Shown piece by piece: positions 1-689 of a stretch of DNA of 16,366 nucleotides. The DNA comes from a virus (Duplodnaviria > Heunggongvirae > Uroviricota > Caudoviricetes). The notes beneath the pieces were generated by a model, which saw only the letters and a program-made list of their open reading frames with translations, had not been told where the DNA came from and searched no databases. Each line of letters begins with the position of its first letter. Positions within the stretch are counted from its first letter, which is position 1. Position numbers and translations under genes: made by a program. The stretch is taken from the IMG/VR virus record IMGVR_UViG_2698536392_000011. One strand, given 5' to 3'.

Positions 1-144
1 TATCGTTTTAATAACCGGGATGAAGCCATCTCAGTAATATGGGAATACATTGAGATTTTCTACAATCGTCAGCGTCGTCACTCTCGTCTGGGGAATAGCT
101 CCCCGGCAGCCTTCAGGGAAAAATATCATCAGATGGCTGCTTAG
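1..144 (+). CDS. IS3-family transposase (OrfB-like), C-terminal 47 codons only; 5' part lies before the window
   Basis: Frame 1 from position 1 translates to YRFNNRDEAISVIWEYIEIFYNRQRRHSRLGNSSPAAFREKYHQMAA, ending at TAG 142-144. The YNRQRRHS-LG-SP motif is the conserved C-terminus of IS3-family DDE transposases (recognised from memory, not searched). Exact IS not identified. Confidence 0.75.
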   Translation, partial: YRFNNRDEAISVIWEYIEIFYNRQRRHSRLGNSSPAAFREKYHQMAA

Positions 145-185
145 AAAAAGAACAAATGGTAGAATCCGCTATTGCCAGTACACCT
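1..185 (+). mobile_element. Right-hand end of an IS3-family insertion sequence, inserted into prophage gene P
   Basis: Transposase 3' end at 1-144. Homology of the - strand ORF to P2 gpP stops after the codons for EAL at 186-194, and the 14 residues encoded by 144-185 (RCTGNSGFYHLFFF) are unrelated to gpP, so the IS/phage junction is at about 183-186. Terminal inverted repeat and target duplication cannot be checked without the other IS end. Confidence 0.7.
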
Positions 186-689
186 CAGTGCTTCCTGTGC
201 AAAATACCAGGTCGCCCCAATCTGTCGGGATTTCAGGATCATCCTGTTACGTATCCCGGCTTCCCTGCAAAGGGTCAGGGAGTCAAACCAGCCCCACTGA
301 TGCCACTCCAGCCTGCTGATGATTTTTTCCCGCAGTGCGGCAATCTGTTCCGGCGTGAAATGATTTTTGAGTTTTTTCGCCCGGCCTTTCTTTCCTGCGG
401 CCATCACATCCGGCTGGCCATCATGCAGCTTTTTAAGCTGCCGGGTCAGCAGGTCTATTTCCTTAAAGTCACCGCCTGTTTTATTCTGTTTTTCAGTAAG
501 CTGGATGAGGCGCGCATCGATGGACTGCGTGACACGCTGCACGGGTGGCGTTTCATCCCACTGGTCACGTTTTTTCCACGCATAAATCGTGTTCGGGTTT
601 ATTCCCATCAGACGTGATATTTCTGCGGGCGGATAACCCTGCCAGTAAAGTTGCCGCGCACGCTGGCGCACAAAAGCGTCCTGAATCAT
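186..689 (-). pseudogene. P: Terminase ATPase (large) subunit gpP, N-terminal ~168 codons, truncated by the IS insertion
   Basis: ORF 141..689 (-) contains LYWQGY...ISRLMGI...AWKKRDQWD, KTGGDFKEIDLL and ILKSRQIGATWYFAQEAL, which match remembered P2 gpP N-terminal segments (LYWQGF, KTGGDFKEIDLL, ILKSRQIGATFYFAREAL). P2 gpP is roughly 590 aa; here similarity ends after about 168 aa and the frame runs into IS sequence to a stop. Confidence 0.85.

Follow-up and report, generated by a model that had tools for sequence, protein, structure and literature searches.

IS600 is a 1264-bp insertion sequence with 3-bp target duplications, and the iee gene encodes an IS-excision enhancer that removes IS3-family elements. 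In phage P2, genes P and Q form one leftward late transcription unit. P2 gene P, which encodes the ATPase subunit of the terminase, is divergent from O-N-M-L and followed by Q, a position and a domain architecture that it shares with the gene considered here. Knockouts by IS600/IS629 are known from STEC, where IS600 lies in lacZ of O121:H19 (PMC9397093) and in iee of O145:H25 (PMC5567499), and in other STEC the IEE-driven excision of IS600 can reactivate genes, as for lacZ of O121:H19 (PMC9397093). The O165:H25 strain 2012C-4227 is also an STEC (PMC4683243); a comparative study reports the absence of iee from it and a high amplification of IS600 in the related O145:H25 lineage (PMC5567499).

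The window analysed here, 16,366 bp in length, is the entire draft contig LNFT01000145.1 (GCA_001608265.1). A preliminary description, made from the letters alone, had proposed that an IS3-family element interrupts the terminase gene P at the left end of the window, a proposal that was borne out by the transposase matches, by RefSeq-labelled copies of the element and by the finding of the same junction in four complete genomes. As a whole, the locus would be explained by a simple insertion of IS600 into gene P of a decaying P2-like prophage, with duplication of GTG and loss of packaging, and we consider this reading very probable. The insertion in P is in itself already known, being annotated in public genomes, and is an ordinary IS knockout.

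Positions 1-187 (+) are the right-hand 187 bp of the element, the contig beginning within it, and they show 97.3% identity over 187 nt to the final 187 bp of the 1264-bp copies in 2012C-4227 that RefSeq labels IS600, in agreement with the earlier assignment of the first ~185 bp to an IS. The frame at 1-144 (+), which translates as YRFNNRDEAISVIWEYIEIFYNRQRRHSRLGNSSPAAFREKYHQMAA followed by a stop, comprises the final 47 codons of the IS600 transposase (OrfB/OrfAB) and the TAG stop at 142-144. Its peptide matches the C-terminal end of Pfam rve_2, an integrase-core fold (E 1.1e-8), and positions 333-369 of the 369 of NCBIfam NF033516 (IS3 family transposase) at 33.9 bits, where a score below the cut-off of 160 bits is expected for a 47-aa fragment; orfB of the full IS600 copy in 2012C-4227 scores 344 bits against the same cut-off. 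This full copy has orfA and orfB, a AAAAAAAG slippery motif (A7G) at position 316 and a 'programmed frameshift' marked by RefSeq, that is, the IS3-family arrangement of a DDE/rve transposase from orfA/orfB with a -1 frameshift at A6-7G, the slippery site itself lying outside the window. The right terminal inverted repeat region occupies 143-187 (+) and closes with CA at 186-187; the end reads ...CACCTCA, with its final base at 187, and its sequence, CCAGTACACCTCA, is also the end of the complete IS600 found at P in 2012C-4227 and 2013C-4830, which is 1264 bp long and starts with TGAGGTAGCC. The element has 5'-TG...CA-3' ends with imperfect terminal inverted repeats, IRL and IRR of the 2012C-4227 copy having TGAGGT and GGACACT blocks in common; the second IRR block reads GGATTCT in the window instead of GGACACT. 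RefSeq names the left part of the junction 'IS3-like element IS600 family transposase' in three genomes and 'IS3 family transposase' in 90-3040. Taking RefSeq-named copies and the 1264-bp length in relatives as a proxy for the ISfinder isoform criteria, the interrupting element is identified from its sequence as IS600, of the IS3 family.

The exact border between IS600 and P is 187/188. Homology had previously been placed as lost at about 183-186, which is close to this border without being exact; a chance match between uninterrupted P and the last two bases of the IS (CA, 186-187) makes the break appear to fall at 186. The GTG at 188-190 is one copy of a 3-bp target-site duplication; the window itself contains this single copy, on one side of the insertion only, and in 2013C-4830 and 2012C-4227 GTG is present at both flanks of the IS. 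A second IS600 copy is likewise flanked by AAG/AAG. The uninterrupted target site is CAGCAGTGCTTCC, within the wider context ...CATCAGCAGTGCTTCCTG.... When window positions 1-1000 were searched by megablast against 5426 complete E. coli genomes, 853 genomes reached a query coverage of 80% or more, and four of these (2013C-4830, 2012C-4227, 90-3040 and 2013C-3492) cover the query whole, junction included. These four carry the same prophage, in the yecA / tRNA-Leu region, with the same IS600, insertion base, orientation and GTG duplication; in the other genomes among the matches listed (~849) the match begins at 186, inside an uninterrupted terminase gene. CFSAN027346 was considered as a fifth junction genome and rejected as a joined-place artefact, P being intact there and IS600 lying elsewhere in the prophage.

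Given the 97.3% identity to IS600, the four complete genomes and a canonical fusion ORF that is found on 20 contigs, the junction is not a chance resemblance. The same observations bear on the suspicion that it could be an assembly chimera, with P intact in the source strain, to which its closeness to a contig end (187 bp) and the five unusual bases there lend some colour. A chimera would not produce a precise IS terminus beside sequence matching the duplication, nor does it fit with the same base and the same GTG in four independently finished genomes or with the 20 contigs, and we judge it to be extremely improbable. The unusual bases are the only differences between the window and 2012C-4227: all five substitutions fall within the last 187 bp of the IS (window positions 40, 98, 144, 163 and 164; 5 of 187 positions), and the next 16,179 bases, 188-16366, are identical base for base in the O165:H25 genome. 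Positions 163-164, which belong to the conserved inverted-repeat block GGACACT, are AA in the window and TG in the other copies compared. No IS600 copy in the 5426 E. coli genomes is more than 97.9% identical to window 1-187, and the best match examined (LAU-OXA) has only base 164 in common with it among these positions; in exact searches, species-representative genomes contained neither the 163/164 variant nor the position-40 variant, and metagenomes did not contain the 163/164 variant. Ordinary divergence would not plausibly account for five private changes within 187 bp that lie beside 16 kb of perfect identity. Assembly noise at a contig end within a multi-copy repeat would be their likeliest cause, and it is possible that the source strain has an IS copy altered by conversion or recombination.

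On the other side of the border, positions 188-689 (-) hold the 5' fragment of the large-terminase gene P, codons 1-167 of 583. Reading on into the IS, this fragment forms a chimeric ORF of 182 aa (141-689, -) in which 167 P residues are followed by IS-encoded ones (..EALRCTGNSGFYHLFFF and a stop), the residues after P residue 167 being RCTGNSGFYHLFFF; the stop is at 141-143, inside the IS, where the gpP frame had been proposed to terminate. Residues 6-63 of the chimeric ORF are a complete Pfam Terminase_5, the gpP-like N-terminal HTH (E 1.4e-27), and residues 150-169 match only positions 1-20 of the 215 of Terminase_6N, with a score of 17.7 bits that does not reach the cut-off. The window ORF contains neither a complete ATPase domain nor the RNaseH-like nuclease domain, and the intact 583-aa homologue carries Terminase_5, Terminase_6N (169.7 bits over positions 1-211) and Terminase_6C (E 7.8e-31). 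The break falls seven residues past KSRQIGAT (residues 153-160), which, from the start of the Pfam ATPase domain, we take to be a putative deviant P-loop; presumably it is comparable to the SRQLGKT motif of T4 gp17. Compared with the intact 583-aa P of the DEC5E prophage (O55:H7), the P sequence of the window matches through residue 167 except at residue 132 (W in the window, at position 296, versus R in DEC5E), a lone substitution in an already dead gene.

A broad protein search with the terminase returned cluster representatives and confirmed the family, and searching the PDB with the sequence of the intact terminase yielded no match. The DEC5E terminase has 100% protein identity to that of Escherichia phage vB_EcoM-569R5 (ON470599.1, Peduoviridae), and identity to P2-type phages (such as R18C, 10W and PhiR44_1) is ~44%, so that 'gpP' here denotes a homologue in a P2-like lineage and not the protein of P2 itself. 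The surrounding gene order is of the P2 type, with O, N, M and L to the right of P in the window and Q after P in relatives. The divergent intergenic region between P (leftward) and scaffold gene O (rightward), 690-843, shows no differences from DEC5E, and the capsid scaffold gene O is located at 844-1680 (+), following the annotation of relatives. The window contains no match to the P2 Ogr-type dyad TGT-N12-ACA, and a sigma-70 promoter scan of 1-900 found nothing.

The chimeric ORF of the window is deposited as KYV30059.1, 'terminase', in a version present on one contig only, the canonical 182-aa form being represented by ALL94006.1 and others; the matching 414-aa C-terminal fragment, which in relatives starts at Met170 (MALRDDV...) and contains Terminase_6N and Terminase_6C, occurs on 37 contigs. 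RefSeq names the P piece 'terminase gpP N-terminus-related DNA-binding protein', and this name, together with the complete HTH domain, could be taken to mean that the 182-aa ORF is a genuine stand-alone DNA-binding protein related to the gpP N-terminus. We find this very unlikely: RefSeq itself flags the feature as incomplete, a pseudogene without its C-terminus, in ~849 genomes 583-codon P genes run collinear with this DNA up to the IS terminus, and the last residues of the ORF are encoded by the IS inverted repeat.

Whether the remainder of P and gene Q lie beyond the IS or are deleted had been put forward as the point to check, and it could be answered in two relatives, 2012C-4227 and 2013C-4830. 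There the last 414 codons of P, followed by the portal gene Q, directly adjoin the IS (NZ_CP013029.1, 2809177-2810440, for the copy in 2012C-4227), which together with the GTG duplication shows that in these close relatives there was a simple insertion and not a deletion; the genomes 90-3040 and 2013C-3492 contribute the junction. In intact relatives the start of Q overlaps the stop of P. The whole prophage can be seen in 2012C-4227, from the integrase beside yecA to ogr near tRNA-Leu, and there is no other P gene in it. Under a simple insertion, the far side of the IS would read IS600 left end, CAC and TGCTGATGGCGCTGCGT (the rest of P), that is, ...CGCCATCAGCAGTG directly before TGAGGTAGCCTGAGTTTAACGG. 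A draft contig with the opposite junction, ...CTACCTCA CAC TGCTGATGG, is a mirror image of the window, ending in the IS600 left end and continuing with CAC and the rest of P. By extrapolation from the relatives, the source strain presumably has the same structure past the end of the contig.

The source strain could depart from its relatives if its IS600 at the junction had recombined with another copy, by inversion or deletion, displacing or removing the rest of P and Q; the insertion would then be ancestral and the present structure no longer a simple insertion. Substrates for such an event would be numerous (PMC5567499), as related complete genomes each give 18-23 matching places for the 1000-base query, nearly all of them IS600, and the contig does end in the IS, which bears five private differences although its flank is identical to 2012C-4227. 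Nevertheless, both junction genomes examined at this level (2012C-4227 and 2013C-4830) keep the simple insertion, 37 contigs hold the matching C-terminal fragment, and exchange with a canonical IS600 partner would not give rise to bases that no known copy has. On balance, we consider recombination unlikely in the source strain and retain the simple insertion of IS600 into P.

The junction had also been thought to mark the end of recognisable prophage sequence, a view that does not hold, since in complete genomes the prophage runs ~13 kb further past the window, to the integrase. As is typical of short-read assemblies, the contig is bounded by repeats on both sides, here of the IS3 family: the 187 bp of IS600 at its left end and, at its right end, the first 28 bp (16339-16366, +) of a second element that is 1310 bp long in 2012C-4227, where it has a GCC target duplication (16336-16338 in the window). 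RefSeq names this element IS3 family transposase, and from its terminal sequence and its length of 1310 bp we take it to be IS629-like. The window stops inside an IS because the short-read assembly broke at a repeat, and the apparent end of the prophage is thus an assembly break and not biology. Contig ends within IS copies are not biological boundaries, and claims from draft contigs that a prophage ends at an IS should be checked against finished relatives.

Over 186-16338 the window is 99.75% identical to the DEC5E prophage, with 37 substitutions and three 1-bp indels, each of which frameshifts a gene. The major capsid gene N (1704-2757, +) has an extra A near 2188, is split into ORFs at 1704-2222 and 2152-2757 and is called 'frameshifted' by RefSeq; the baseplate gene J (9583-10478, +) has lost a C near 9986; and a NanS-like DUF6645/SASA cargo gene (5657-7535) has an extra T near 6452. 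Sequencing error is unlikely for the three indels because they are common to the draft contig and the finished genome of 2012C-4227. Furthermore, the tape-measure gene T is cut by the second IS, its 3' part occupying 14931-16338 (-), where homology to DEC5E ends at 16338 and RefSeq records the gene as 'incomplete; missing N-terminus'. In 2012C-4227 a third IS, which is the second IS600 copy, with the AAG duplication, abuts the ogr end at locus positions 38885-40041, outside the window. Judged by these lesions, the prophage is defective several times over, in P, N, J and T. The preliminary description had called it probably defective from the loss of P, and the conclusion is now far stronger than from P alone, because the insertion in T, the IS600 by ogr and the frameshifts are added to it. 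With two IS and three frameshifts in 16 kb and a third IS outside, this P2-like prophage of an O165:H25-related STEC lineage is a decaying remnant.

The cargo genes had been expected to remain expressible, which holds only in part: of the two, the serine acetyltransferase gene is intact and the NanS-like gene is frameshifted. The latter, a large gene between the lysis cassette and the tail gene R, has the domains DUF1737, SASA (sialate O-acetylesterase) and DUF6645 and resembles the NanS-p esterases of EHEC prophages, being carried here as cargo in a P2-like prophage; its intact version in a relative lies at 21471-23348. The intact gene at 13701-14273 (-), annotated as serine acetyltransferase and with a weak hexapeptide-repeat match, is moron-like cargo; the tail-fibre assembly gene lies on one side of it and the tail genes on the other. 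The tail block itself (U, T, E, tube and sheath; 14430-16338 (-) in the window and 30430-37318 in the 2012C-4227 locus) and the genes H and G lie on opposite strands in this prophage, as they do in all its relatives; we assume the block to be inverted with respect to the P2 gene order. Within the tail-fibre gene H, a 132-bp tandem repeat at 11591-11942 (2.7 copies, 89% matches) corresponds to Phage_fiber_2 repeats.

Taken together, these data are consistent with a scenario in which a P2-like (Peduoviridae) prophage, carried by a strain ancestral to the O165:H25-related STEC lineage, would have received a 1264-bp IS600 by transposition at codon 166/167 of its gpP-type large-terminase gene, the 3-bp target GTG being duplicated in the process. 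The upstream piece would retain the HTH and read into the IS, giving the 182-aa fusion ORF, and the other 414 codons, which encode the remainder of the ATPase and all of the nuclease domain, would lie beyond the IS, ahead of Q. Having no full-length terminase, the prophage would be unable to package its DNA. By analogy with P2, P and Q may be a single leftward late unit in this prophage as well, in which case Q, lying downstream, is probably subject to IS polarity and reduced expression. There is only a very small chance that the split P is not inert and that, separately, the five private substitutions belong to a real, immobilised IS copy. Alone or with the 414-residue remainder, the 167-residue HTH fragment, behind a putative late promoter region of its own, could then bind either the small terminase subunit or the DNA to be packaged; related P2-like phages that enter the cell might thereby be hindered in their packaging, or the two P pieces might reconstitute some terminase activity. 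We keep to the plain IS600 knockout of P, which adds one case to the IS600 expansion known from this lineage and matters little beyond annotation.

The window differs from its nearest uninterrupted counterparts in the lesions themselves. In the DEC5E O55:H7 prophage the P, N, J, T and DUF6645 genes are all intact, and both this prophage and vB_EcoM-569R5 are without the IS and without the frameshifts. Precise excision promoted by IEE is not expected here, because the closest complete genome is without iee (PMC5567499), and excision of IS600 from P would leave N, J and T broken and so would not repair the prophage. As in the STEC knockouts of lacZ and iee, the same IS family has been amplified and genes have been lost by simple insertion; unlike in those cases, the target in the window is a prophage morphogenesis gene.
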